Positions 5,900-16,826 are shown, counted from the stretch's first letter. The stretch: DNA of 64,000 nt from Armatimonadota bacterium (GCA_037445735.1 JBBIJY010000005.1:59381-123380); one strand, 5' to 3'. Notes: generated by a model not told the origin, from the letters alone. Numbers and translations: made by a program.

Positions 5900-6673
5900 C
5901 TATCGCCCCGTGAGGGCATGAACAATCGGGTTCTCCGCGCCGAAAAGGGTGGTCGCCAGCACGCTTAGCAGCAACAGGCACAACAGCCCGATTTTGGCGT
6001 AGTCCTGACCCACCAGACTGCCCAGCATGGTTGGCTCGTGCGTGAGGTAGGCGCTCGCGGCGTACAGCTCCTCACCGATAATCGTGTAGTCGCAGCTGGC
6101 GATGAAGAAGGGCACCTGAAAATAGTCGTCAGTGCCCGCAATCTGCATCGCGCCCGTGCGCTGACCCGGCTCAGCGAGCAGCAGCGAGGTGTAGTCGTAC
6201 ATGCCGAAGAAAAAGTGCGAGGCGGTCTGCTCCTGCAGCATCAGGTCGGCGGTGGCGAGGGCGAGCTGGTCGCTCTGGGCAGCGATGAAGCGGATGTCGG
6301 ACGGCTCAAACCGTTCGGGATGCCCCACGCTCTCGCATGCCTGGCGAATGACCGCTTCGAGAATGGGCACCATCACGGGGAAAGCCGTGACGGTCAGCAG
6401 GCGCAGGTTGAGCCGTGCGGCTTGCCGCGCGACATGGCTCAGCACGCCGAGCGCGGCGAGCGTGCTGATTGCCTGCACATCGCCCACGCCCGGGTGAAAC
6501 AGCAGCGGTCTGCCCGTTTCGGCGGCGCGCCCAATCGCTTCGTCGATGGCGTTCAGCCCCGCGATGCGCCGGATAAAGATAGGACGCCCGCGCCGCGCCG
6601 CCCCGATGCCCCACAGAATCAGCCCGCCAATCGCGCCAATCGCTATCAGCATCTGCAGGTTCGCATGCTCCAT
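5900..6673 (-). CDS. DUF6754-like membrane-anchored protein
   Basis: FIRRIAGLNAIDEAIGRAAETGRP and GAMQIAGT...PFFIASCDYTIIGEELYAASAYL...GSLVGQD; family name from recall; GGAGG RBS. Confidence 0.75.
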   Translation of the reverse strand: MEHANLQMLIAIGAIGGLILWGIGAARRGRPIFIRRIAGLNAIDEAIGRAAETGRPLLFHPGVGDVQAISTLAALGVLSHVARQAARLNLRLLTVTAFPVMVPILEAVIRQACESVGHPERFEPSDIRFIAAQSDQLALATADLMLQEQTASHFFFGMYDYTSLLLAEPGQRTGAMQIAGTDDYFQVPFFIASCDYTIIGEELYAASAYLTHEPTMLGSLVGQDYAKIGLLCLLLLSVLATTLFGAENPIVHALTGR

Positions 6674-6767
6674 GCCACCTCCTGCTTACGACCGGGCACG
6701 CGATTTTCCTGTCGGACTCCCAGCGTGGCAGGAGAGTGAAATCGGGGGGCGAACCAACGGGATTTGT

Positions 6768-8756
6768 ATGGCGGTGCTGGACGAGTTGCAACGGGCGCGG
6801 CGCACGGCGGAGGAGGTCGCCGCCGAAGAGCGCCGATTCGAAGACGGGTTCACCTTCCGCACCTTTCTGGGTCTGCTGTTCGTGGCGTTCGTGATGTTGC
6901 CCGGCAGCATCTATATGGGGCTGGTGGCGGGTGTGGGGCTGGGTTCCGCTGCCGAATGGGTCACCATCGTGCTGTTCGCGGAGGTGATGCGCCGCTCGCT
7001 CCAGCCGCTCAAGCGGCAGGAGATTTACATGCTGTTTTATATTGCGTCCGCGCTCACCGCGATGGGGCTGTACGGGCTGTCGGGCGGACCCCTGCAGTGG
7101 AAAATCTGGGACCAGTTCTTCATTCAGTCGGCGCCTGCCACGCCCTTCGCGAAGGAAATCCCGCACTGGGCGGTGCCCGCGCCCGATTCGGTCGCCCTGC
7201 GCGAGCGCACCTTCTTCCATCCCGACTGGTTCCTTCCGCTGGGGCTGCTGATACTGACCGAGATTCTGGGGCGTGCCAGCTGGATGAGCATGGGCTACCT
7301 GCTCTTTCGGATGACCTCCGATGTGGAGCGGTTGCCGTTCCCGCTGGCGCCCGTGGCGGCGTCGGGCGCACTCGCGCTGGCAGAGGCGGGACGACGCGAA
7401 GAATCGTGGCGCTGGGGCGTCTTCTCCACCGGCGCCGTCGTCGGCATGGCGTTCGGATTCTTCTATCTGGCGATCCCCGTGTTCACGGGCACGCTGTTCG
7501 GCGACGCCGTGCAGATTATCCCCATCCCGTTTCTGGATTTGACCCAGAATGTGGAGAATCTCCTGCCGACCGCCATCATTGGCGTCTCGCTCAATCTGGG
7601 CGAGGTGCTGCTTGGCTTCGTGCTGCCCTATCAGATTGTGCTGGGTTCAGCCATCAGCTCCGTTCTGACCTATGTGCTGGCGAACCCGCTGCTGTATCAG
7701 ATGGGGCTGATCCGGAGCTGGCAGCCGAACTCGCCCGCGCTGCAGACCAAAATCTCCGTCGATATCGACTTCTGGCTGGCGATTATTGTGGGGTTGCAGC
7801 TGGCGGTGGCGGCGATTGGCGTCGGAATGGTGATTCGCACTCTGCGCGAGCATGGTCGCCAGCGGGCGTTGCAGGCACGCGGGCTGATGCCGCCCCCTGC
7901 TGGACGCGGCGACCCGCCCCTGTGGATACCCGTTGTCATCTGGCTGGTTTCGGTGGTGTCCTACATTCTGCTGTGCCGCTGGCTGGTGCCGGAGTTCCCC
8001 CTCTGGATTGTGGTGCTGTTCGGGCTGTTCTGGAGCCCGCTCAACAGCTATGTGTCGGCGCGAATGATCGGGCTGACGGGTCAGGGCGTGTCGGTGCCGT
8101 TTTTGAAGGAGGTGGCGGTCATCAGCAGCGGCTATCCAAAGGTGGACATCTGGTACGCGCCGCTGCCCCTGCAGGACCACGGCTGGGCAGCCCAGCGGTT
8201 CCGCGAGGTGGAACTCACCGGCACACGGTTCACCAGCATCCTGAAAGCCGAGCTGGTGATGCTGCCGACGATTTTCATCGCCAGCTTCCTGTTCTGGTCG
8301 TTCTTCTGGAAAGCCAGCCCGATCCCATCGTCGCTGTTTCCCTATGCGATGCGGATGTGGCCCTACTTCGCGCAGATGGACGCCGTGTGGAAGCAGATTA
8401 ATCGCCCGGAGAGTGAGATGCGCGAGCTGGTGCTGGGCGCGTTGAACCTGCCGCGCATCGGGATCGGCTTTCTAATGGGGCTGGGGCTGTACGGGCTGTT
8501 CAGCGCGTTCAAGATGCCGCTGCTGCTCTTCTACGGGTTTGTGGGCGGTGTGGGTCAGTTCCCGCATTATACGCTGCCGCGCCTGTTCGGCGCATGGCTG
8601 GGCATGCGCTACTTCCGCCGACGGTTCGGCGAGGACAACTGGATCCGCTATGCGCCCGTGCTGCTGGCAGGCTTCTTCTGCGGCATGGGGCTGATCGGTA
8701 TGTTCGCGATTGCGCTCGCACTGATCGCCAAATCGGTCTCCGTGCTGCCGTTTTAG
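6768..8756 (+). CDS. OPT-like / peptide-transporter-like integral membrane protein
   Basis: About 660 aa with many TM segments; FEDGFTFRT and SDVERLPFPLAPV; divergent from the four-gene membrane operon. Confidence 0.7.
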   Translation: MAVLDELQRARRTAEEVAAEERRFEDGFTFRTFLGLLFVAFVMLPGSIYMGLVAGVGLGSAAEWVTIVLFAEVMRRSLQPLKRQEIYMLFYIASALTAMGLYGLSGGPLQWKIWDQFFIQSAPATPFAKEIPHWAVPAPDSVALRERTFFHPDWFLPLGLLILTEILGRASWMSMGYLLFRMTSDVERLPFPLAPVAASGALALAEAGRREESWRWGVFSTGAVVGMAFGFFYLAIPVFTGTLFGDAVQIIPIPFLDLTQNVENLLPTAIIGVSLNLGEVLLGFVLPYQIVLGSAISSVLTYVLANPLLYQMGLIRSWQPNSPALQTKISVDIDFWLAIIVGLQLAVAAIGVGMVIRTLREHGRQRALQARGLMPPPAGRGDPPLWIPVVIWLVSVVSYILLCRWLVPEFPLWIVVLFGLFWSPLNSYVSARMIGLTGQGVSVPFLKEVAVISSGYPKVDIWYAPLPLQDHGWAAQRFREVELTGTRFTSILKAELVMLPTIFIASFLFWSFFWKASPIPSSLFPYAMRMWPYFAQMDAVWKQINRPESEMRELVLGALNLPRIGIGFLMGLGLYGLFSAFKMPLLLFYGFVGGVGQFPHYTLPRLFGAWLGMRYFRRRFGEDNWIRYAPVLLAGFFCGMGLIGMFAIALALIAKSVSVLPF

Positions 8757-9586
8757 CCCTTCAGCCCCGTGAGCGTGATGCCGCGAATGAACGCCCGCTG
8801 GGTAAGCAGAAACACGACCACCAGTGGTGCCGTGACCACGACCGCCGCCGCCATCAGCAGGTTCCACTGCTCGCCGTGCCGACCCAGAAAATATTGCAAG
8901 CCGACCGCCAGTGTGAACTTGCTGGCGTCGTTGAGGTAAATCAGCGGCGCCATGAAGTCCGTCCACGCCCACACGAACGCAAAAAGCGCGACGGTCGCAA
9001 TCGCGGGTCGCGCCAGCGGCGCCACCACCCGCCACAGGATCGTCCAGTCGGTCGCGCCGTCCAGATAAGCCGCGTCGATCAGCTCCTGCGGCAGGGTCAG
9101 AAAGAACTGGCGCAACATGAAAATCAGGAAGGCGTTCCCGAAGAAGGCGGGCACAATCAGCGGCAGGAAGGTGTCCACCCAGCCCAGCCAGCGAAAGAGC
9201 AGAAACACGGGCAGCAGTGTGACCTGCGGGGGCAACATCAGCGTGGCGAGCATCACCCAGAACCAGAAGTTGCGTCCGCGCCAGCGCATCCGCGCGAACG
9301 CATAGGCGGGCGGCAAACAGCTCAAAACCGTGCCCACCACCACGAAGCCCGCTATCAGCAGGGTGTTGCGCAGATAGAGCCAGAAGGGGAAGGCGTTCAG
9401 CGCCTGCCGATAGTTCTCCCACGCGACGCGCGACGGGATCCACACGATGCGCTCCGTGAACAGCTCGTTATCGGGCTTCAGCGAGGTGGAGACCATCCAC
9501 GCAATCGGCAGCAGAAACAGCGCCGCCAGCCCCATCAGCACCAGATGCGCCGCCGCCACACGCGCCCAGCCACGCCCGAACCGCAT
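8753..9586 (-). CDS. Carbohydrate ABC transporter permease (MalG-like), orphan
   Basis: EAA-type loop LPQELIDAAYLDGA and AYAFARMRWRGR. Confidence 0.9.
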   Translation of the reverse strand: MRFGRGWARVAAAHLVLMGLAALFLLPIAWMVSTSLKPDNELFTERIVWIPSRVAWENYRQALNAFPFWLYLRNTLLIAGFVVVGTVLSCLPPAYAFARMRWRGRNFWFWVMLATLMLPPQVTLLPVFLLFRWLGWVDTFLPLIVPAFFGNAFLIFMLRQFFLTLPQELIDAAYLDGATDWTILWRVVAPLARPAIATVALFAFVWAWTDFMAPLIYLNDASKFTLAVGLQYFLGRHGEQWNLLMAAAVVVTAPLVVVFLLTQRAFIRGITLTGLKG

Positions 9587-9603: not shown

Positions 9604-9738
9604 TGAGGCTGTTCGAAAATTTGGGGGCGTCGTATCCACCTGGATGCAGAACCCCCTCACCCGTACCCTCTCCCCCAAAGGGGGAGAGGGTTTTTTATTC
9701 TCCCTTCTCCCCGCTGGGGAGAGGGTCGGGGTGAGGGG
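9604..9738 (+). repeat. Dispersed repeat: conserved head plus an inverted pair of BoxC-like palindromes
   Basis: tgaggctgttcgaaaattt...cccctcacccgtaccctctcccccaaagggggagaggg, then an inverted unit ending gggtgagggg. Confidence 0.8.
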
Positions 9739-9754
9739 CATCTTTCCCAACCCC

Positions 9755-9784
9755 TTGACAAGAGGGATTAAAGGTGGGTACAAT
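9755..9784 (+). promoter_or_regulatory. Sigma70 promoter for the 9819 gene
   Basis: TTGACA-18 nt-TACAAT, followed by a GGAGG RBS at about 9806. Confidence 0.75.
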
Positions 9785-9818
9785 AGTAGACATCTGTATA
9801 CCGACGGAGGGTAAGAAG

Positions 9819-10349
9819 ATGGCGTTCAATGTGAGGCGGTACCTGATTCGGGTGCGTGGCGGGCAGGCGTACCTGCCAGTTGCCGCGCGCGTCGCATGGT
9901 TCAGAGATGAGCATCCCGACTGGAGCATCGAGACCGAGCTGGTGGAGTTGAACCTTGAGCGGCAGATAGCGGTCTTTCGCGCAACAATCAAGGACAATAA
10001 CGGGCGCGTGATTGCGACCGCCACCCGCATGGAGACGGGCAACGACTTCGCCGACTTTCTGGAGAAGGCGGAGACGGGCGCGGTCGGGCGTGCGCTGGCG
10101 TTGTGCGGCTACGGCACACAGTTCGCGCCCGAGCTGAGCGAAGGTGAACTTGCCGAGGGACGGGTTGCCTACGCCGATTCGCCGCTGCCCGTGCGGGGCG
10201 AGCCAGCCCCACCTGCCGAAGAGCTGGTCTGCGCCGAGTGCGGGCGACCGCTGCGCCGCGCCCAGTATGACCTGAGCGTCACCAAGTTCGGGCGACCGCT
10301 GTGCCCCAGCTGCCAGCGACAGGCACAACCGCGCACCGCGCAAACCTGA
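9819..10349 (+). CDS. Rad52/Sak-like single-strand annealing protein with C-terminal Zn finger (putative)
   Basis: YLPVAARVAWFR, EKAETGAVGRALALCGYG and C-terminal CAECG...CPSCQ. Confidence 0.6.
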   Translation: MAFNVRRYLIRVRGGQAYLPVAARVAWFRDEHPDWSIETELVELNLERQIAVFRATIKDNNGRVIATATRMETGNDFADFLEKAETGAVGRALALCGYGTQFAPELSEGELAEGRVAYADSPLPVRGEPAPPAEELVCAECGRPLRRAQYDLSVTKFGRPLCPSCQRQAQPRTAQT

Positions 10350-11356
10350 TGGTAAAGCAGATCGCCACCGAAAGCGGCATCCGACTCGATAAGTGGCTGG
10401 CGGAGCAGGTGCCCGAAATCAGTCGTCAGCGGTGGCAGGAGTGGATTGAGGCGGGCGGCGTGCGGGTCAACGGTCAGCGCGTCAAGCCCGCCTACAAACT
10501 GCACGCGGGCGACCGAATCGAGTTCAGCCTGCCGCCCGACCGACCGCCCCCGATCGACCTTCGCCCGGAGCCGATCCCGATAGAGATTGTGTTCGAAGAC
10601 GAGCATCTGCTGGTGGTGAACAAGCCGCGCGGGCTGGCCGTCCATCCCGCGCCGGGTCATCCGCATGGCACGCTGGTGAACGCTTTGCTGGCGTACGCGC
10701 CGCGCCTCGCACACGGCAGCGCGCCCTTTCGCCCGGGCATCGTCCATCGGCTGGACAAAGACACCACCGGGCTGCTGATCGTCGCCCGTACGGATCGGGC
10801 GCATGCGCGGCTGACCGCCGACTTACAGCGTCGTGCGATTGAGCGTCGCTACCTCGCGCTGGTGTGGGGCGAGCCGAAAGCCGATCAGTTCACGGTGGAG
10901 ATGCCCATCGCGCGTCATCCTGTGCATCGCCAGCGGATGGCGGCGTTCTCGCCGGAGCGAGCGCCTGCGAACGCGCGTCCCGCCCGCACGCACTTTGGTG
11001 TGCGCCAGCGGTGGCGCGGCTTCGCCCTGCTGGAGGCGAAGCTGGACACGGGACGCACGCATCAGGTGCGCGTTCACGCCAGCGCCATCGGGCATCCCGT
11101 GGTGGGCGACCCGCTCTATGGCGGGCGGCGACGGCTGCCCGCCGGGCTGTATCCTCCTGACGCCAGCGCCCGCCTGCAAGCCGCGCTGGACGCCCTGCAG
11201 GGTCAGCTGCTTCACGCCCACGCGCTCGCCTTCACCCACCCCATCACCGCCGAGCCGATGCGCTTCACTGCACCCCTGCCCGACGATTTCCAGCAAGTTC
11301 TCCATCTGCTGAATAAGCAAGTTAAAGATAATACACCTCTATATCAACAACCGTGA
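10349..11356 (+). CDS. rluD: RluA/RluD-family pseudouridine synthase
   Basis: S4 domain RLDKWL, NKPRGLAVHP, HRLDKDTTGL and GRTHQVRVH; TGATG overlap with the upstream gene. Confidence 0.92.
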   Translation: MVKQIATESGIRLDKWLAEQVPEISRQRWQEWIEAGGVRVNGQRVKPAYKLHAGDRIEFSLPPDRPPPIDLRPEPIPIEIVFEDEHLLVVNKPRGLAVHPAPGHPHGTLVNALLAYAPRLAHGSAPFRPGIVHRLDKDTTGLLIVARTDRAHARLTADLQRRAIERRYLALVWGEPKADQFTVEMPIARHPVHRQRMAAFSPERAPANARPARTHFGVRQRWRGFALLEAKLDTGRTHQVRVHASAIGHPVVGDPLYGGRRRLPAGLYPPDASARLQAALDALQGQLLHAHALAFTHPITAEPMRFTAPLPDDFQQVLHLLNKQVKDNTPLYQQP

Positions 11357-11388
11357 GAGACGATGAGGTATGCCCCTTCAGGTACAAC

Positions 11389-13350
11389 ATGGAGCCGATG
11401 ACAGTGACGGAGTGGCTGGTATGCCGAGTGAAGCGAGCGATTCTGGACTGGTTTCGGTATCGCTGGTACGGAGCGCTGGAGGTTTATAGCCCGCTGGGTG
11501 AGTTGCGCTTGCCAATGACGGGCACGATTGCCCAGTGGTTTTCGAAGGATGAAACGGTGCTGGTGCAGCTAACGCCGCAGGCGAACCCGCAACAGTTAAG
11601 CTTTGACTCATATATGCTTCTGCGTCAGATTGGGGGCGAGAGGGTGCCTGTGTGGCCGCTGTTTCAGCAGTCCTACACTCTGGAGCGCACCTCGGCTTTG
11701 TCCACACAACCACTCTATCACTATAGAGTGCTGGCGCGTGAAGCGTGTCTGGAAAGCGATTTTGAAATGATTGTTGAGCTGGAACAGTATCACTATGCGT
11801 CCCCGCAGGAGTTATTGGCACGCTGGTGGTGTCCTGTAGATCGGGTGTGGCAGGGTGCGAATGTGCGTCCGCTGTGTCCACGCTGCGGTTCACCGATGCG
11901 GTTCGGCGATCTGACGGATGCCACGCGTGCTTCGCGCTTTTTAGTGCTGCAACTGCAGCATCGCCAGCCGTACGAGCCGACTTACATCGGCTATGTGCGT
12001 GTGGATCCGCCCATTCCGCTCATGCATCGGCTGTTGCCCGATGGTACAGTTCAGCCCCACATTCGGCAAGCCGTGTTTCCCGTCGACTGGTTCGAGCCAT
12101 CGTTTTCAGTGGAGCGCCTCTTGCAAATGGGTGCAGGCGCACGGGCGCGCTCCCGCTTTGAGCAGTGGTGGCAGGCACAGGAGCAGGCTTTAGCTCTCTG
12201 CAATACCCGGGTGGCGCGACTGGCACGGGTAGTGGTCCACCCTGATTATCGGGCTGATGGGCTGGGGCAGCTCGCACTACGAGCAATGACCGATTGGATT
12301 AGCGAGCGGCGCGTGCCCGAAATGCGGCGCTCCAAAGTGATGGTGGAGACCGTAGCTCAAATGACCCGGTATAACCCCTTTATGGAGCGAGCAGGCTTCC
12401 GCTATGCGTGGGAGACGGCATCCGGGCGCCCTGTGCTATTCCTGCCGCTCACGCCTGAAGCCAGAGAGTATCTGGAACGCTTTCTGACAACCGATGCTGT
12501 TGCTCGCGTGCATCAAGGTCGGCTCTACCAACCCCGCTTGAAGCCTGTCAAGCCACTGGAAGCTCCTATCCAGCTGGAACGACTCGAATATCGCTATGAG
12601 AACCGGATCACACTCAAGCGGCTGGCGCCGGCTGTGCTGGCATTGCTGGAGGCATTCAATCTCCAGAGGCGTTCCATTCAGAAGATAGTGCTGAGGAATC
12701 TCTCGCTCCTGATCGAGCCACGCCAGATTGTAGTCATCGTTGGCGCATCAGGTGTGGGCAAGACCACTCTGCTGCGTTTGATCTACGGTGCGGCAATGAG
12801 TCAACAAAAGCCGCTCCACCAGCTGCAGGCGGGCAGAATCGTGATGCCCGCCAATGTGCAGGTCGCTGCCTATTTGCCAGGCGAAGTGGAACCCCGGTTT
12901 GGACGGACAAATCTGCTTGAAGTGCTCTATCGCCTCACCAATGACGAGGTATTGGCAGTGGAGATTCTGAACACGACGGGTCTATCGGATGTCATGGTCT
13001 ATCGTGCCCGCTTTCAGGAGCTGTCCACCGGTCAGAAGGAGCGGGCGCGGCTGGCTTATTTACTGGCACAGCGCCCGAACTTACTGCTTATCGATGAGCT
13101 GGGTGCACATCTGGACCCCAGCATGGCAGCGCGCGTGGCTCGCAGGTTGGCGCGCGTGTGCCGGGAGTTAGGCATCACCCTGCTTACCACCACCCACCGC
13201 TCAGAGGTCGTGGATGCCCTTGAACCCGATCAGAAGATTATTCTGGGCTATGGGACCTGTCGGGTAGTGCCTCGTTCAGCCGAACCCACACAACCGACCC
13301 GGGTGGGCGCCTCAGCGGAATCGGCTCCTCAAACAGCTCGGGATCTGTAA
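11389..13350 (+). CDS. GNAT acetyltransferase fused to an ABC-type ATPase, with Zn-ribbon-like insert (COG2401-like)
   Basis: ELEQYHYAS; CPVD...CPRCG; GNAT motif A RVVVHPDYRADGLG; Walker A GASGVGKTT; signature LSTGQKER; Walker B LLLIDE; no TM segments. Confidence 0.85.
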   Translation: MEPMTVTEWLVCRVKRAILDWFRYRWYGALEVYSPLGELRLPMTGTIAQWFSKDETVLVQLTPQANPQQLSFDSYMLLRQIGGERVPVWPLFQQSYTLERTSALSTQPLYHYRVLAREACLESDFEMIVELEQYHYASPQELLARWWCPVDRVWQGANVRPLCPRCGSPMRFGDLTDATRASRFLVLQLQHRQPYEPTYIGYVRVDPPIPLMHRLLPDGTVQPHIRQAVFPVDWFEPSFSVERLLQMGAGARARSRFEQWWQAQEQALALCNTRVARLARVVVHPDYRADGLGQLALRAMTDWISERRVPEMRRSKVMVETVAQMTRYNPFMERAGFRYAWETASGRPVLFLPLTPEAREYLERFLTTDAVARVHQGRLYQPRLKPVKPLEAPIQLERLEYRYENRITLKRLAPAVLALLEAFNLQRRSIQKIVLRNLSLLIEPRQIVVIVGASGVGKTTLLRLIYGAAMSQQKPLHQLQAGRIVMPANVQVAAYLPGEVEPRFGRTNLLEVLYRLTNDEVLAVEILNTTGLSDVMVYRARFQELSTGQKERARLAYLLAQRPNLLLIDELGAHLDPSMAARVARRLARVCRELGITLLTTTHRSEVVDALEPDQKIILGYGTCRVVPRSAEPTQPTRVGASAESAPQTARDL

Positions 13351-13645
13351 ACACCCACACATAAAGCGGTCTACCCTGCGCATAGGCTTCCAGAAAGCGC
13401 GGGTCAGCTTGATGCAAAGCCTGAGCCGCGGGCTGCATCAATTCTGCCAGGGTCAGCGGTCCCAGTACCTTTTCAAGCGTCGCCGAGCCAATCCAGCCAC
13501 GATGACTAACTATTCCGACGCGCCCACGCACACGCGTGGGGTATCGCCGCAGCTCCCAGCTTTTGCGCCCCGACGCCAGATAGGTGGCATACGGTTCGCG
13601 CACGATCAACCCGTGCTTCGGCAGCAGGAGAACCCGGTCGCTCAT
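13238..13645 (-). CDS. ASCH-domain protein
   Basis: GLIVREPYATYLASGRKSWELR (GxKxxExR) and YVWVF...PGSVVWV; TATGAT -10 box 7 nt before the ATG. It is the C-terminal part of listed ORF 13238..14734. Confidence 0.85.
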   Translation of the reverse strand: MSDRVLLLPKHGLIVREPYATYLASGRKSWELRRYPTRVRGRVGIVSHRGWIGSATLEKVLGPLTLAELMQPAAQALHQADPRFLEAYAQGRPLYVWVFTDPELFEEPIPLRRPPGSVVWVRLNEALPDRSHSPE

Positions 13646-13690
13646 CCTTCCAATCATACCCGCTCTCAAACCGGCATAACGGGTAGACTC

Positions 13691-14701
13691 ATGATGGCGA
13701 TGCAGAGCGAGCTGTACGACATCACCTTCATCGGTGGGGGACCTGTCGGGCTGTTCGGCGCGTTCTATGCGGGACTGCGGGGCATGCGCACCAAAATCAT
13801 CGACAGCCTGCCCCAGCTGGGGGGTCAACTGGTCGCGCTCTACCCCGAAAAGTATATCTACGACATGCCCGGCTTCCCCGAAGTGCTGGCGAAGGACCTG
13901 GCGGAGCAGCTGATTCGGCAGGCGATGCGCTTCCAGCCGACGGTGTGCCTGGAGGAGCGCGCCGAAACGCTGATTCGCGAGGGCGATTACTGGGTCATTC
14001 TCACCAGCAAGGGCGTTCGGCACGCGACGCGCACGGTGGTCATCTGCGCGGGCGCGGGCGCGTTTACACCGCGCCGCCTGAACGCCGAGGGCATCGCCGA
14101 GTTCGAAGGACGGGGCGTCTACTACGGCGTGCGCGAGAAGGCGCTCTTCGCCGATAAACGCCTGCTGATTGTCGGCGGGGGCGACTCCGCTGTCGACTGG
14201 GCGCTCAACCTCTACCCGATTGCCCGCGAAACGACGCTCATCCATCGCCGCCACGAGTTCCGTGCGCACGAGCAGAGCGTGCGCCTGCTGCGCCAATCGC
14301 CCGTGCGCGTCCTCACACCCTACGAACTGCGCCGCGTCAAAGGCGACGGCAGCGTGCAGTCCGCCGTCATCTTCCATAATCAAACGCACACCGAGCTGGA
14401 GCTGCCCGTCGACGCCGTGATTCTCAATCTCGGCTTCGTCGCCAGCCTCGGTCCCATCAAGCAGTGGGGGCTGGAACTCGAAGGCAACGCCATCAAGGTC
14501 GACCGCTTCATGCAGACGAACCTGCCCGGCGTGTATGCTGCAGGCGACGGCTGCACCTACGAGGGCAAGCTCAAACTGCTGGCGACGGGCGTCGGCGAGG
14601 TCTGCATCGCTGTCAACCACGCCAAGCATCGGCTCGACCCCAGCGCGAAGATGTTCCCCGGACACAGCAGCGATATGACGCTCCCACCGCTCACAGGCTG
14701 A
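13691..14701 (+). CDS. Ferredoxin-NADP+ reductase (TrxB/YumC type)
   Basis: IGGGPVGLFGAFYAG, LYPEKYIYDMPGFP, GGGDSAVDWAL and C-terminal PGHSS; no CxxC. Start could be 13691, 13694 or 13700. Confidence 0.9.
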   Translation: MMAMQSELYDITFIGGGPVGLFGAFYAGLRGMRTKIIDSLPQLGGQLVALYPEKYIYDMPGFPEVLAKDLAEQLIRQAMRFQPTVCLEERAETLIREGDYWVILTSKGVRHATRTVVICAGAGAFTPRRLNAEGIAEFEGRGVYYGVREKALFADKRLLIVGGGDSAVDWALNLYPIARETTLIHRRHEFRAHEQSVRLLRQSPVRVLTPYELRRVKGDGSVQSAVIFHNQTHTELELPVDAVILNLGFVASLGPIKQWGLELEGNAIKVDRFMQTNLPGVYAAGDGCTYEGKLKLLATGVGEVCIAVNHAKHRLDPSAKMFPGHSSDMTLPPLTG

Positions 14702-14732
14702 TAACACTGCTTCAGGTATACTGCTATTGACC

Positions 14733-16826
14733 ATGAGTGTGGCGACCCGCTATACGCTGGAGACCGAGGTCAAGTATGTGAAAGGTGTGGGCGAGAAAAT
14801 CGCGCAACTGCTGGCGAAGCTCAACATCCACACGCTGAACGACCTGCTCTATCACCTGCCGCGCCGCTATGAAGACCGCACCCAGTTCCGCAAAATCCGC
14901 CACGCGCGCCCCGGCGAAGCCGCCACCTTCGCTGGCAAGCTCATCACCGTCGACAACATCAAGGTGCGCAACAACATGACCCTCACCAAAGCCTTCATCG
15001 ACGACGGCACAGGCGCCATCGAACTGGTCTGGTACAACCAGCCCTACATGAAGGACACCCTGCTGCGCGTGCGCGACCGCCGTCTCGTGGTCTACGGCGT
15101 GGTCAAGGAGAGCGGCTGGGGACTGCAAATCGAAACGCCCGAATGGGAAGATATCGGCGACGACACCGACATGAGCGAGCTGCTGCACGCAAATCGCGTG
15201 GTGCCCATCTACCCGCTGACGGAGGGGCTGGGACAGAAACGGATGCGCCAGATTCTCTATAACGCGCTCCAGCATGCGCACCTTGTGCCCGAACTGCTGC
15301 CCGCCGACCTGCGCACGCGCCTGCAGCTGATGCCCGTTCAGGAAGCCATTCAACAGGTTCACTTCCCCGACAGCATGGAGCGTATCGAACCCGCGCGGCA
15401 ACGGCTGGTGTTCGAAGAGTTCTTTTTATTGCAGTTAGGCATCGGGCTTCAGCGTCAGCAGCTGATGCAGGAGCGCGGGATTGCGATGCGCATCGACGCC
15501 GAACGGCTGATGGCGCGGTTGCATCAGCTGGCGCCGTTCGAACTCACGAACGCGCAGGTGCGCGTGATTCGCGAAATCTGGGACGATATGGCGCGTCCGC
15601 ACCCGATGAACCGCCTCCTGCAGGGCGATGTGGGGTCGGGCAAGACGATAGTCGCCGCCGCCGCGATTATGGCAGCGGTGGACAATCAGTATCAGGCGGC
15701 GATTATGGCGCCCACCGAGATACTGGCGGAACAGCATTATATTGTGTTGCATCGGCTGTTCCAGCCGCTGGGCATCACGGTGGAGCTGCTGGTGGGTCGG
15801 CTGACCCCGCGCCAGCGGGCGCAGGCGCGCGAGCGCATCGCCACCGGGCGCGGCATGGTCGCCGTCGGCACCCACGCACTCATTCAGGAAGGGGTTGAGT
15901 TCGCCCGACTGGGGCTGGCAATCATCGACGAACAGCACCGTTTCGGCGTGCTGCAGCGAGCCGCCCTGCGCGATAAGGGTGTCATGCCCCATGTGCTGGT
16001 GATGACCGCCACACCCATCCCCCGCACGCTCACGCTCACCCTCTACGGCGAACTCGATGTGTCCATCCTGGATGAGATGCCACCCGGACGCAAGCCCGTC
16101 AAAACGCACTGGAAACTGCCCGAAGAGCGATTGAAGGTGTACGCAGGCGTACGCCAGCTGGTGGAGCAGGGGCGCCAGGCGTATGTCATCTGCCCGCTGA
16201 TCGACGAATCGGACAAGCTGCAGGTGCGCGCCGCCGAAGAGATGGCGGAACATCTGCGCAAGGATGTGTTTCCCGACCTGCGCGTGGGACTTCTGCACGG
16301 GCGCATGCGCCCCGCCGAAAAGGAGGAAGTCATGGAAGCCTTCCGCGCGGGCGAGCTGGATATTCTGGTCTCCACCACCGTGATTGAAGTGGGCGTCGAT
16401 GTGCCGAACGCTGCCGTGATTGTGATTGAGGACGCCGACCGATTCGGGCTGGCGCAGCTGCACCAGTTGCGCGGGCGCGTCGGGCGCAGCATCCATCAAT
16501 CCTACTGCGTGCTGATTGGCAACCCGAAAGGCGAGGAGGGGCGACGCCGACTGGAGATTCTGACCCGCACCAATAACGGTTTCATCATTGCGGAGGAGGA
16601 TTTGCGCCTGCGCGGTCCGGGCGAGATTTACGGCACGCGCCAGAGCGGAATGCCCTCGTTCCGTGTGGCGGATCTGGTCAAGGATATGCGGCTGCTGGAA
16701 GTGGCGCGTCAGGAGGCGTTCCGTCTGCTGGAGCGCGACCCCGACCTCAGCCGCCCGGAGCATCAGCCCCTTCGCGAAGCCGTCGAACGCTCTCGCCACC
16801 GCTTCGCGATAGCAACGGTGAGTTAG
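14733..16826 (+). CDS. recG: ATP-dependent DNA helicase RecG
   Basis: LLQGDVGSGKT, DEQHRFGV, MTATPIPRTL and QLHQLRGRVGR. Confidence 0.97.
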   Translation: MSVATRYTLETEVKYVKGVGEKIAQLLAKLNIHTLNDLLYHLPRRYEDRTQFRKIRHARPGEAATFAGKLITVDNIKVRNNMTLTKAFIDDGTGAIELVWYNQPYMKDTLLRVRDRRLVVYGVVKESGWGLQIETPEWEDIGDDTDMSELLHANRVVPIYPLTEGLGQKRMRQILYNALQHAHLVPELLPADLRTRLQLMPVQEAIQQVHFPDSMERIEPARQRLVFEEFFLLQLGIGLQRQQLMQERGIAMRIDAERLMARLHQLAPFELTNAQVRVIREIWDDMARPHPMNRLLQGDVGSGKTIVAAAAIMAAVDNQYQAAIMAPTEILAEQHYIVLHRLFQPLGITVELLVGRLTPRQRAQARERIATGRGMVAVGTHALIQEGVEFARLGLAIIDEQHRFGVLQRAALRDKGVMPHVLVMTATPIPRTLTLTLYGELDVSILDEMPPGRKPVKTHWKLPEERLKVYAGVRQLVEQGRQAYVICPLIDESDKLQVRAAEEMAEHLRKDVFPDLRVGLLHGRMRPAEKEEVMEAFRAGELDILVSTTVIEVGVDVPNAAVIVIEDADRFGLAQLHQLRGRVGRSIHQSYCVLIGNPKGEEGRRRLEILTRTNNGFIIAEEDLRLRGPGEIYGTRQSGMPSFRVADLVKDMRLLEVARQEAFRLLERDPDLSRPEHQPLREAVERSRHRFAIATVS

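Follow-up and report, generated by a model that had tools for sequence, protein, structure and literature searches.

A window of 64,000 nucleotides from an Armatimonadota bacterium (GCA_037445735.1, JBBIJY010000005.1:59381-123380) carries an inserted unit of two convergent genes. The larger encodes a soluble protein in which a GNAT acetyltransferase domain is followed by a single ATP-binding cassette (ABC) ATPase domain (here called GNAT-ABC), and the smaller encodes an ASCH-domain protein. The evidence set out below supports the view that the two genes are a functional pair, and that they were acquired horizontally as one unit. We consider the chances evenly balanced that the pair is an ATP-driven nucleic-acid acetyltransferase, probably acting on RNA cytidine, together with a dedicated ASCH deacetylase or reader. 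What is known already consists of generic public annotation of the genes and, for the ASCH half, a new characterization in preprints.

The limits of the unit (Table 1) are given by a genome of the same genus (G002), which aligns to the window at 95% over positions 9745-11310 and at 96% over 13682-16800, the two matches lying on one contig and 39 bp apart. The left break falls within the last codons of rluD, exactly after position 11310, which is where an earlier note, made from the sequence alone, had seen an AT-rich junction. Among 40 relatives searched, ranging from the same genus to the same order, the only true match to GNAT-ABC is in G001 (74% identity), where rluD, the oxidoreductase gene and recG are on another contig. 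A second match, in G017 (E 8.7e-4 over 43 residues), was rejected as spurious. At another locus from the same genus (L009, 72% identity) the pair adjoins pheT, and so occupies a different site from that in the window. The G+C content at third codon positions (GC3) is 0.644 for GNAT-ABC and 0.650 for ASCH, values within the 12th-15th percentile among 1622 long open reading frames (ORFs); six flanking genes have 0.77-0.87, and the median for the genome is 0.766. Overall G+C is 0.582 for the cassette and 0.622 for the genome, with 8.5% of 2371-bp genome windows being lower. The excess of A/T-ending codons that the note had reported is therefore real relative to the flanks, where the block is well below its surroundings in GC3, yet it is only a mild outlier genome-wide. 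The ends of the unit show no standout direct or inverted repeats, those found being short and chance-like, and neither the window copy nor the L009 copy was seen to have an integrase, transposase or recombinase gene beside it. Horizontal acquisition as a unit, also proposed in the note, is supported by the clean 2371-bp indel, the presence in 1 of 40 relatives, the lower GC3 and a gene tree that crosses phyla (see below).

Table 1. Coordinates of the two-gene unit, its parts and its neighbours, counted from the first base of the window.
Feature	Position	Strand	Remarks
BPD_transp_1 permease gene	8756-9586	-	About 1.8 kb upstream, outside the inserted unit
rluD	10301-11356		PseudoU_synth_2 and S4 (Pfam); left neighbour of the two-gene unit
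Inserted two-gene unit	11311..13681		2371 bp; 39 bp in its place in the same-genus genome
New AT-rich 3' end of rluD	11311..11356	+	Made by the insertion; ending ...LLVS* (relative) changed to ...LLNKQVKDNTPLYQQP* (window)
GNAT-ABC gene	11389..13350	+	653 aa from the ATG at 11389
N-terminal all-beta domain	11389..11703	+	Residues 1-105; secondary structure of models
GNAT domain	11704..12543	+	Residues ~106-385; fold matches
Zn-ribbon-like insert in GNAT	11818..11913	+	CPVD ... CPRC
Acetyl-CoA motif VVVHPDYRADGLG	12229..12267	+	RxxGxG; R288, G291 and G293 invariant
ABC nucleotide-binding domain, single	12568..13281	+	Residues ~394-631, after a linker
Walker A	12742-12765	+	ABC motif
LSTGQ	13021-13035	+	ABC motif
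Walker B	13081-13098	+	ABC motif
H-loop	~13186-13200	+	ABC motif
C-terminal tail of GNAT-ABC	13282..13350	+	Unconserved, disordered; residues 632-653 with pLDDT <50
Frame overlap GNAT-ABC/ASCH	13238-13350		Convergent, 113 nt
ASCH gene	13657-13238	-	139 aa; alternative start 13645
ASCH octapeptide GRKSWELR	13547..13570	-	GxKxxExR; motif search
Pyridine-nucleotide-disulphide oxidoreductase gene	Start near 13692		Right neighbour, divergent from ASCH (Pfam)

The start of GNAT-ABC given in Table 1 is that of its database cluster and of the homolog alignment, and is clear of the rluD stop; the frame itself is open from a GTG at 11353 (11353..13350, 665 aa). An AlphaFold model built on 70 homologs is globular (predicted local distance difference test, pLDDT, 91.6; predicted template modeling score, pTM, 0.87). 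The highest 19-residue window of hydropathy is the Walker A strand, with no other hydrophobic segment, in agreement with the soluble protein of about 650 residues described in the note, and the protein is net basic (82 K+R vs 66 D+E). All of the motifs that the note had listed, namely the Zn-ribbon-like insert, the acetyl-CoA motif and those of a complete ABC ATPase, were located. Across the 70 homologs the acetyl-CoA motif, Walker A, LSTGQ, Walker B and H-loop are invariant or nearly so, while in the Zn-ribbon-like insert C148, C163 and C166 are invariant and the fourth ligand position is variable, being Asp in the window. The N-terminal beta-domain has invariant columns of its own (R25, G28, G45, Q49, W50, W89, P90). 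At the expected place of the Q-loop the ABC domain has a Glu-rich LPGEVEP. Pfam recognizes the ATPase (ABC_tran, residues 447-582 of the 665-aa form, E 1.7e-16), and its GNAT matches are weak (Acetyltransf_1, E 6e-4, 20.4 bits against a cut-off of 20.7).

Homologs of GNAT-ABC stop soon after a GYG motif. Within the overlap of the two frames, the GNAT-ABC side is the unconserved, disordered tail and the ASCH side is conserved, and for this reason the tail looks like read-through into the antisense of ASCH. The 113-nt overlap noted earlier is thus present but specific to this lineage, since the spacing at convergent loci elsewhere varies between a 104-nt gap and a 167-nt overlap; one of these loci (L050) has an irregular ORF.

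For comparisons of fold, residues 1-395 were modeled separately (pLDDT 94) and used as the query in Foldseek and VIA-align. In the PDB, the best 13 Foldseek matches are all NAT10, Kre33 or TmcA (E 6e-6 to 2e-4), with RimI, TacT and generic GNATs ranking below them. VIA-align, with matches that span model residues ~90-380, returned a broad tie among GNATs at Z 10-11 that includes YhbS, Streptomyces lividans PAT, phage Mu Mom, Kre33/NAT10, Naa80 and RimI; Kre33/NAT10 have Z 10.0-10.4 and the longest alignments (177-187 residues). On these models the N-terminal half has the GNAT fold, and the matches suggest a particular resemblance to RNA cytidine acetyltransferases. GNATs filled the fold searches, which barely probed the N-terminal beta-domain, and for this domain the ESM Atlas gave no usable match. 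In Foldseek the full-length model matches ABC transporter ATPases only. By sequence and fold the ATPase half is closest to ABC importer ATPases (MetN, FbpC, PotA), and it also matches ABCF/ABCE proteins, with NCBIfam transporter matches that are all far under their cut-offs (e.g. 79.8 vs 266 bits).

Many members of the family are 46-72% identical to the window protein over 87-98% of the length, and the window protein has the family's make-up, a soluble polypeptide in which the RxxGxG motif is followed by a single ABC domain. Members carry labels such as 'ABC-type ATPase with predicted acetyltransferase domain' (JGI) and 'GNAT family N-acetyltransferase' (RefSeq), with no described function, and we take them to be COG2401-type proteins. 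Record titles are mostly of thermophile taxa. Archaeal and bacterial members are 46-50% identical, indicating slow evolution. Among sampled genomes of Thermococcaceae, GNAT-ABC is present in 57 of 81, compared with the 1 in 40 relatives of the window genome.

More distant relatives also exist. When residues 1-395 were compared with 1.84 billion cluster representatives, only 83 proteins matched at E <=0.001, among them distant GNAT-then-ABC proteins of 550-890 aa (P0153-P0199) that do not have the N-terminal part of the window family, and in which there was one weak PF13718 match and one weak DruA match. The architecture is therefore wider than the subfamily represented in the window. Viral contigs (L101-L137) encode 37 remote relatives of ~480-510 aa (24-45% identity) in which the order is reversed, ABC then GNAT. 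At 16 of the 20 viral loci examined these adjoin the gene for terminase large subunit. A Pfam ASCH domain occurs beside two of the 20 (L101, and L110 below cut-off), and in L112 the ABC-GNAT protein is followed by a Piwi-domain protein. The profile of the window's ASCH subfamily found nothing in any of the 37 viral loci at E <=1, and phage records searched with the GNAT half gave no match.

Conservation of the GNAT-ABC/ASCH pairing, on which the note's proposal depended, was examined in a collection of species genomes, where 317 stretches encode relatives, and arrangements were counted at the best 80 loci. The two are encoded as one ORF, with ASCH C-terminal, at 28 loci; a convergent ASCH gene lies just downstream at 19; and at two, both labelled Thermoproteales, ASCH is directly upstream on the same strand. 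No ASCH was found nearby at the other 31. Twenty-nine of these are labelled archaeal; one of the 31 (L076) ends 2 bases past the match, and another (L016) has an in-frame stop in GNAT-ABC. Protein searches likewise returned many homologs of 725-772 aa with a C-terminal ASCH domain, to which the window's ASCH protein is 48% and 45% identical (E 3e-35 and 7e-32). A convergent pair is also annotated in RefSeq on the megaplasmid of Thermomicrobium roseum DSM 5159 (TRD_RS12820 and ASCH gene TRD_RS12825, overlapping by 7 nt). Other neighbours do not recur to the same degree: each family (CysRS, FKBP, AGOG, thiamine genes and others) reaches at most 9 of the 80 loci and is restricted to particular lineages. 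The L016 locus (Thermoflexus-labelled, 6001-7875), with its interrupted GNAT-ABC and without the usual convergent ASCH gene, may be a case of the module decaying as a whole, or may result from an error in sequencing.

Co-occurrence was also followed irrespective of linkage. Among 301 genomes from the phylum of one carrier, the ASCH profile (E <=1e-10) was found in six and the GNAT half in five, a subset of the six, so that both genes occur in five genomes, GNAT-ABC alone in none and ASCH alone in one (the weaker match, 5e-18), although carriers that are kin are not independent cases. Two of these carriers were previously unknown, and in them the genes are adjacent (G221) or fused (G260). Five archaeal carriers were searched, and two of them, both Thermococcus, have a strong but unlinked ASCH ortholog (E 1e-47 and 1e-42), whose neighbours are phosphoribosyl pyrophosphate synthetase, DUF1614, metallo-beta-lactamase and RadB genes.

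In a tree of 78 GNAT-ABC sequences (L016, L050 and L076 were excluded), archaeal sequences fall on one side and bacterial sequences on the other, and phyla are mixed inside the bacterial clades. The fused forms make up one clade, with 100% support in the Shimodaira-Hasegawa-like approximate likelihood ratio test, and the arrangement labels need only three changes, the fewest possible. The window sequence groups with L009, and then with sequences of Thermoflexus and Bipolaricaulota. Because the genes are fused, transferred together and almost exclusively found together, it is very likely that the GNAT-ABC and ASCH proteins act on the same thing.

The smaller protein provides the best indication of what this may be. 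Its match to Pfam ASCH (PF04266) is above the cut-off, at 22.7 bits against 21.2 (23.1 bits in a search of the whole genome, where it is the only ASCH). A profile of 33 orthologs (17 split and 16 fused) matches TTHA0113 of Thermus thermophilus HB8 (TthASCH; PDB 1wk2/2dp9) at E 2e-44 over 118 of 121 residues, the next match being the ASCH domain of human ASC-1/TRIP4 at E ~0.01. By these comparisons the window protein is an ortholog of TthASCH. Residues G30, K32, W34, E35, R37, H82 and Y92 are invariant in all 33 sequences, fused and split, and the five residues probed in TthASCH are all kept in the window (Y14=Y23, K23=K32, E26=E35, R28=R37, Y81=Y92). TthASCH is reported to hydrolyse free N4-acetylcytidine (ac4C) fully within four hours, to deacetylate tRNA in vitro, to lower tRNA ac4C when expressed in E. 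coli, and to bind tRNA and single-stranded DNA even at 300 mM NaCl; K23 and E26 are essential for the activity on tRNA, and Y14, R28 and Y81 also matter for that on the nucleoside (bioRxiv 10.64898/2026.02.27.708502). The pocket of human EOLA1 is likewise described as K/E/R (bioRxiv 10.64898/2026.08.01.741249). The window ASCH protein is thus predicted to be of the ac4C amidohydrolase/tRNA deacetylase type, an activity reported for its ortholog TthASCH, and it is from this quarter that the eraser half of the note's proposal gains outside support.

Since the ASCH subfamily acts on ac4C in vitro, GNAT-ABC is proposed to make ac4C or a close relative of it. In such a scheme, the GNAT domain would move an acetyl group from acetyl-CoA onto a nucleic-acid base, the likeliest target being N4 of cytidine in RNA. 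The Zn-ribbon would sit in the acceptor-binding region of the GNAT, with the extra beta-domain placed in front. The single ABC domain would dimerize on ATP, and might supply the clamping or remodeling that is done in TmcA/NAT10 by a RecD-like helicase domain. The GxKxxExR pocket of ASCH may then bind the flipped-out acetylated base, and either hydrolyse the acetyl group, as an eraser or proof-reader, or hold the site for the writer, as a reader or substrate adaptor. We infer the substrate of GNAT-ABC, the role of ATP and the physical association of the two window proteins, and we judge an RNA substrate roughly twice as likely as DNA. In this scheme GNAT-ABC would work in the manner of TmcA/NAT10 without being a member of that family. 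A bolder proposal, which we offer tentatively, is that the pair is a second, independently assembled machine for ATP-driven acetylation of cytosine, in which an ABC motor replaces the helicase of NAT10/TmcA and an ASCH deacetylase is built in. As a 2.4-kb plug-in it would pass horizontally between thermophilic bacteria and archaea, and give thermophilic bacteria that have neither TmcA nor TmcAL an acetyl mark on RNA or DNA that is both regulated and reversible. The genome of the window (99.2% complete) has no match to PF13718 (TmcA/NAT10-type) and none to PF05636 (TmcAL-type; the B. subtilis control was positive), and PF13718 was found in none of five other bacterial carriers.

Several observations weigh against an RNA acetyltransferase with its own eraser. 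Protein acetyltransferases and phage Mu Mom are among the dozens of unrelated GNATs that share the tie in VIA-align, and a Pfam scan of GNAT-ABC gave no match to PF13718 (GNAT_acetyltr_2) at E <=0.01. Of the 31 ASCH-less loci, 29 are archaeal (although four of these have less than 400 bases downstream), and the ASCH subfamily was found in none of the three crenarchaeal carrier genomes searched. All five archaeal carriers examined have a NAT10-type PF13718 gene. In Thermococcus kodakarensis, a catalytic mutation in TkNat10 is reported to abolish RNA ac4C to the limit of dot-blot detection, which suggests that the archaeal GNAT-ABC is not needed for bulk RNA ac4C; in the family to which this species belongs, 57 of 81 sampled genomes carry GNAT-ABC. 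Within the genus of the window, two of three other genomes are without the gene, so it is dispensable there. To write and to erase one mark within a single polypeptide would amount to a futile cycle, unless ASCH serves as a reader or proof-reader or has another target. Finally, full-text searches of the literature returned no paper on, and no experiment for, any GNAT-ABC protein; a search for COG2401 likewise found no papers, and in the text of the EOLA1 preprint (bioRxiv 10.64898/2026.08.01.741249) the word 'ATPase' does not occur.

Alternatively, the same machinery could work on DNA, acylating N4 of cytosine or N6 of adenine to give a strain-variable epigenetic or anti-restriction mark that ASCH reads or removes. 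The module is indeed strain-variable and mobile, being found at pheT in the L009 locus of another same-genus genome. Mom of phage Mu, a GNAT-fold DNA adenine acyltransferase, ties for the top place in VIA-align (Z 10.6-10.9 over 169-172 residues), and the viral relatives with terminase neighbours (~28% identical, ABC then GNAT) point in the same direction, as do the reported binding of TthASCH to single-stranded DNA besides tRNA (bioRxiv 10.64898/2026.02.27.708502) and the phrase 'DNA or RNA' in the EOLA1 preprint (bioRxiv 10.64898/2026.08.01.741249). Those viral proteins are, however, remote and permuted, and have the window's ASCH subfamily near none of their 37 loci (E <=1). The two-gene unit contains no nuclease or restriction partner and no defence neighbours recur, the ASCH activity was demonstrated on a ribonucleoside and on tRNA, and the family is highly conserved and common in one archaeal family (57 of 81), unlike typical restriction-modification or anti-restriction genes. 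On balance a DNA substrate appears rather unlikely. Slightly less favoured is an acetyltransferase for proteins or small molecules, similar to the multi-domain lysine acetyltransferases Pat/PatZ, in which case ASCH would serve salvage or detoxification by hydrolysing free ac4C or an N-acyl compound, and would not act on a polymer. The GNAT half is matched as well by S. lividans PAT (Z 10.6-10.9), YhbS, Naa80 and RimI as by the RNA enzymes, Foldseek also returned E. coli PatZ (E 8.5e-4), the EOLA1 preprint argues that YqfB and EOLA1 act mainly on the free nucleoside, and free ac4C is hydrolysed by TthASCH (bioRxiv 10.64898/2026.02.27.708502). Against this, GNATs need no ATP for small acceptors, so that a fused and fully conserved ATPase speaks for a macromolecule, as do the Zn-ribbon in the acceptor region, the net basic protein and the fused PUA-like partner of a nucleic-acid-binding type. 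The binding of tRNA by TthASCH at 300 mM NaCl also argues otherwise, and no metabolic or target gene recurs beside the pair.

As a toxin-antidote or abortive infection system, the pair would consist of a GNAT toxin, which acetylates aminoacyl-tRNA or another component of translation once infection is sensed by the ATPase, and of ASCH as its antidote. The tRNA-acetylating toxins TacT and TacT1 are among the weaker Foldseek matches (E 8.5e-4 to 2.5e-3), ABC-type ATPase models of PADLOC match the ATPase half (mad3 9e-23, AriA 8.5e-14, GajA 3e-9), the module is accessory, and the sole related locus that lacks ASCH despite sufficient flank, L016, is the one with an in-frame stop in GNAT-ABC. Fusion of toxin and antidote at 28 loci is contrary to the logic of toxin-antitoxin pairs, however, and the 29 archaeal loci would have a toxin with no ASCH nearby. 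The PADLOC matches are limited to the shared ATPase fold (e.g. residues 553-640), with no match for ASCH and with the partner genes of the systems absent; the family is slow to evolve, and no defence island was apparent around it. This explanation is very unlikely, and for much the same reasons (generic PADLOC matches to ABC ATPases, no recurring defence neighbour, slow evolution) the anti-phage role suggested in the earlier note found no backing. Least probable is an ordinary ABC transporter ATPase subunit with a regulatory GNAT. Importer ATPases (MetN, FbpC, PotA) are the best matches of the C-terminal half, and the earlier note's statement that no permease is nearby holds for the inserted unit, which has neither permease nor binding protein, but not for the wider surroundings, where a BPD_transp_1 gene is found 1.8 kb upstream. 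That gene lies beyond the unit, on the opposite strand, the neighbours of the 80 related loci include no recurring permease, and the NCBIfam transporter matches, as given above, are far under their cut-offs.

The known systems closest to a nucleic-acid acetyltransferase with an ASCH partner show where the window pair differs. TmcA, NAT10 and Kre33, the top Foldseek matches of the GNAT half, similarly combine a GNAT and an ATPase in one soluble protein, and in some prokaryotes TmcA is linked to an ASCH gene in a TmcA-YqfB operon (bioRxiv 10.64898/2026.08.01.741249). In those proteins, however, a RecD-like helicase precedes the GNAT, whereas in the window an ABC domain is C-terminal to it. By Pfam, GNAT-ABC has no PF05127, TmcA N-terminal or tRNA-binding domain, and it has an extra N-terminal beta-domain and a Zn-ribbon. 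The window ASCH is of a GKER type, compared with the GKTR type of the TmcA-linked YqfB. The ac4C amidohydrolases YqfB (E. coli) and EOLA1 (human) share with it the ASCH fold and K...R pocket, and EOLA1 and TRIP4 also the GxKxxExR form, but YqfB and EOLA1 are remote, standalone and, as argued in the preprint on EOLA1, act on the free nucleoside. For TthASCH (TTHA0113; PDB 2DP9, 1WK2), activity was tested with tRNA from E. coli and wheat and with free ac4C, rather than with a native substrate.

A similar set of parts occurs within operons of the (PIN)-GNAT-EVE kind (PMC7641849), which as described there bring together a GNAT, a PUA-like domain and an ASCH gene, often with an ATPase. Those operons join the GNAT to EVE and encode the ATPase as a separate AAA_17 protein, in a setting of restriction-modification or toxin-antitoxin genes. 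By ORF and Pfam scan, the window unit has no EVE, PIN or restriction-modification genes. Phage Mu Mom has the GNAT fold in common with the window protein, with no ATPase or ASCH; it is 11% identical, and does not stand above other GNATs. Its chemistry, acylation of adenine in DNA, is a precedent for the acylation of a nucleic-acid base by a GNAT. Pat/PatZ resemble GNAT-ABC in the fusion of a GNAT (Z 10.6-10.9 for PAT) to a large domain of nucleotide-binding type, but have no ASCH and no Zn-ribbon. Their partner domain is acyl-CoA-synthetase-like. Toxins of the TacT/AtaT type are small stand-alone GNATs with a small DNA-binding antitoxin, compared with the 653-aa multi-domain enzyme and ASCH partner seen here.

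To our knowledge, ac4C is the only RNA acetylation known, and its writers are the NAT10/TmcA family and the unrelated TmcAL. If the pair does write and erase this mark, it would represent a third route to ac4C, with a different motor, and the first in which writer and eraser form one unit. It would also provide ASCH erasers with a native partner and a natural substrate context, and suggest what thermophilic bacterial carriers without known ac4C writers might use instead. The pair could serve as a small thermostable tool for site-directed acetylation of RNA or DNA. The clean indel between near-identical genomes offers a natural comparison of cells with and without the unit, and Thermomicrobium roseum and the Thermococcaceae are cultured organisms in which tests could be made.

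The insertion has left marks on both of its neighbours. At the left, where rluD of the relative has two residues and the stop codon, the AT-rich inserted DNA encodes a tail of 14 residues instead, and the 39 bp of the relative hold a small hairpin that is lost in the window. At the right, only ~35 nt separate the start of ASCH from that of the divergent oxidoreductase gene (13657-13692), so these two genes must share a very short control region that is partly derived from the insert. A signal search found no promoter-like sites, and three terminator-like sites, a number within that expected from shuffled sequence.

Upstream of rluD, an ORF of 191 aa (9774-10349, + strand) has a Cys-rich C-terminus with a weak double-zinc-ribbon match (E 0.008), and matches no Pfam family at E <=0.001. 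It is preceded by a palindromic, G+C-rich element of ~90 nt (9650-9742). As a blastn-short query, the segment 9640-9800 gave 285 matches across its own genome, and its first 40-50 bases have ~25 matching places in a same-genus genome. The element looks like a dispersed repeat of the repetitive extragenic palindrome (REP) or miniature inverted-repeat transposable element (MITE) kind.

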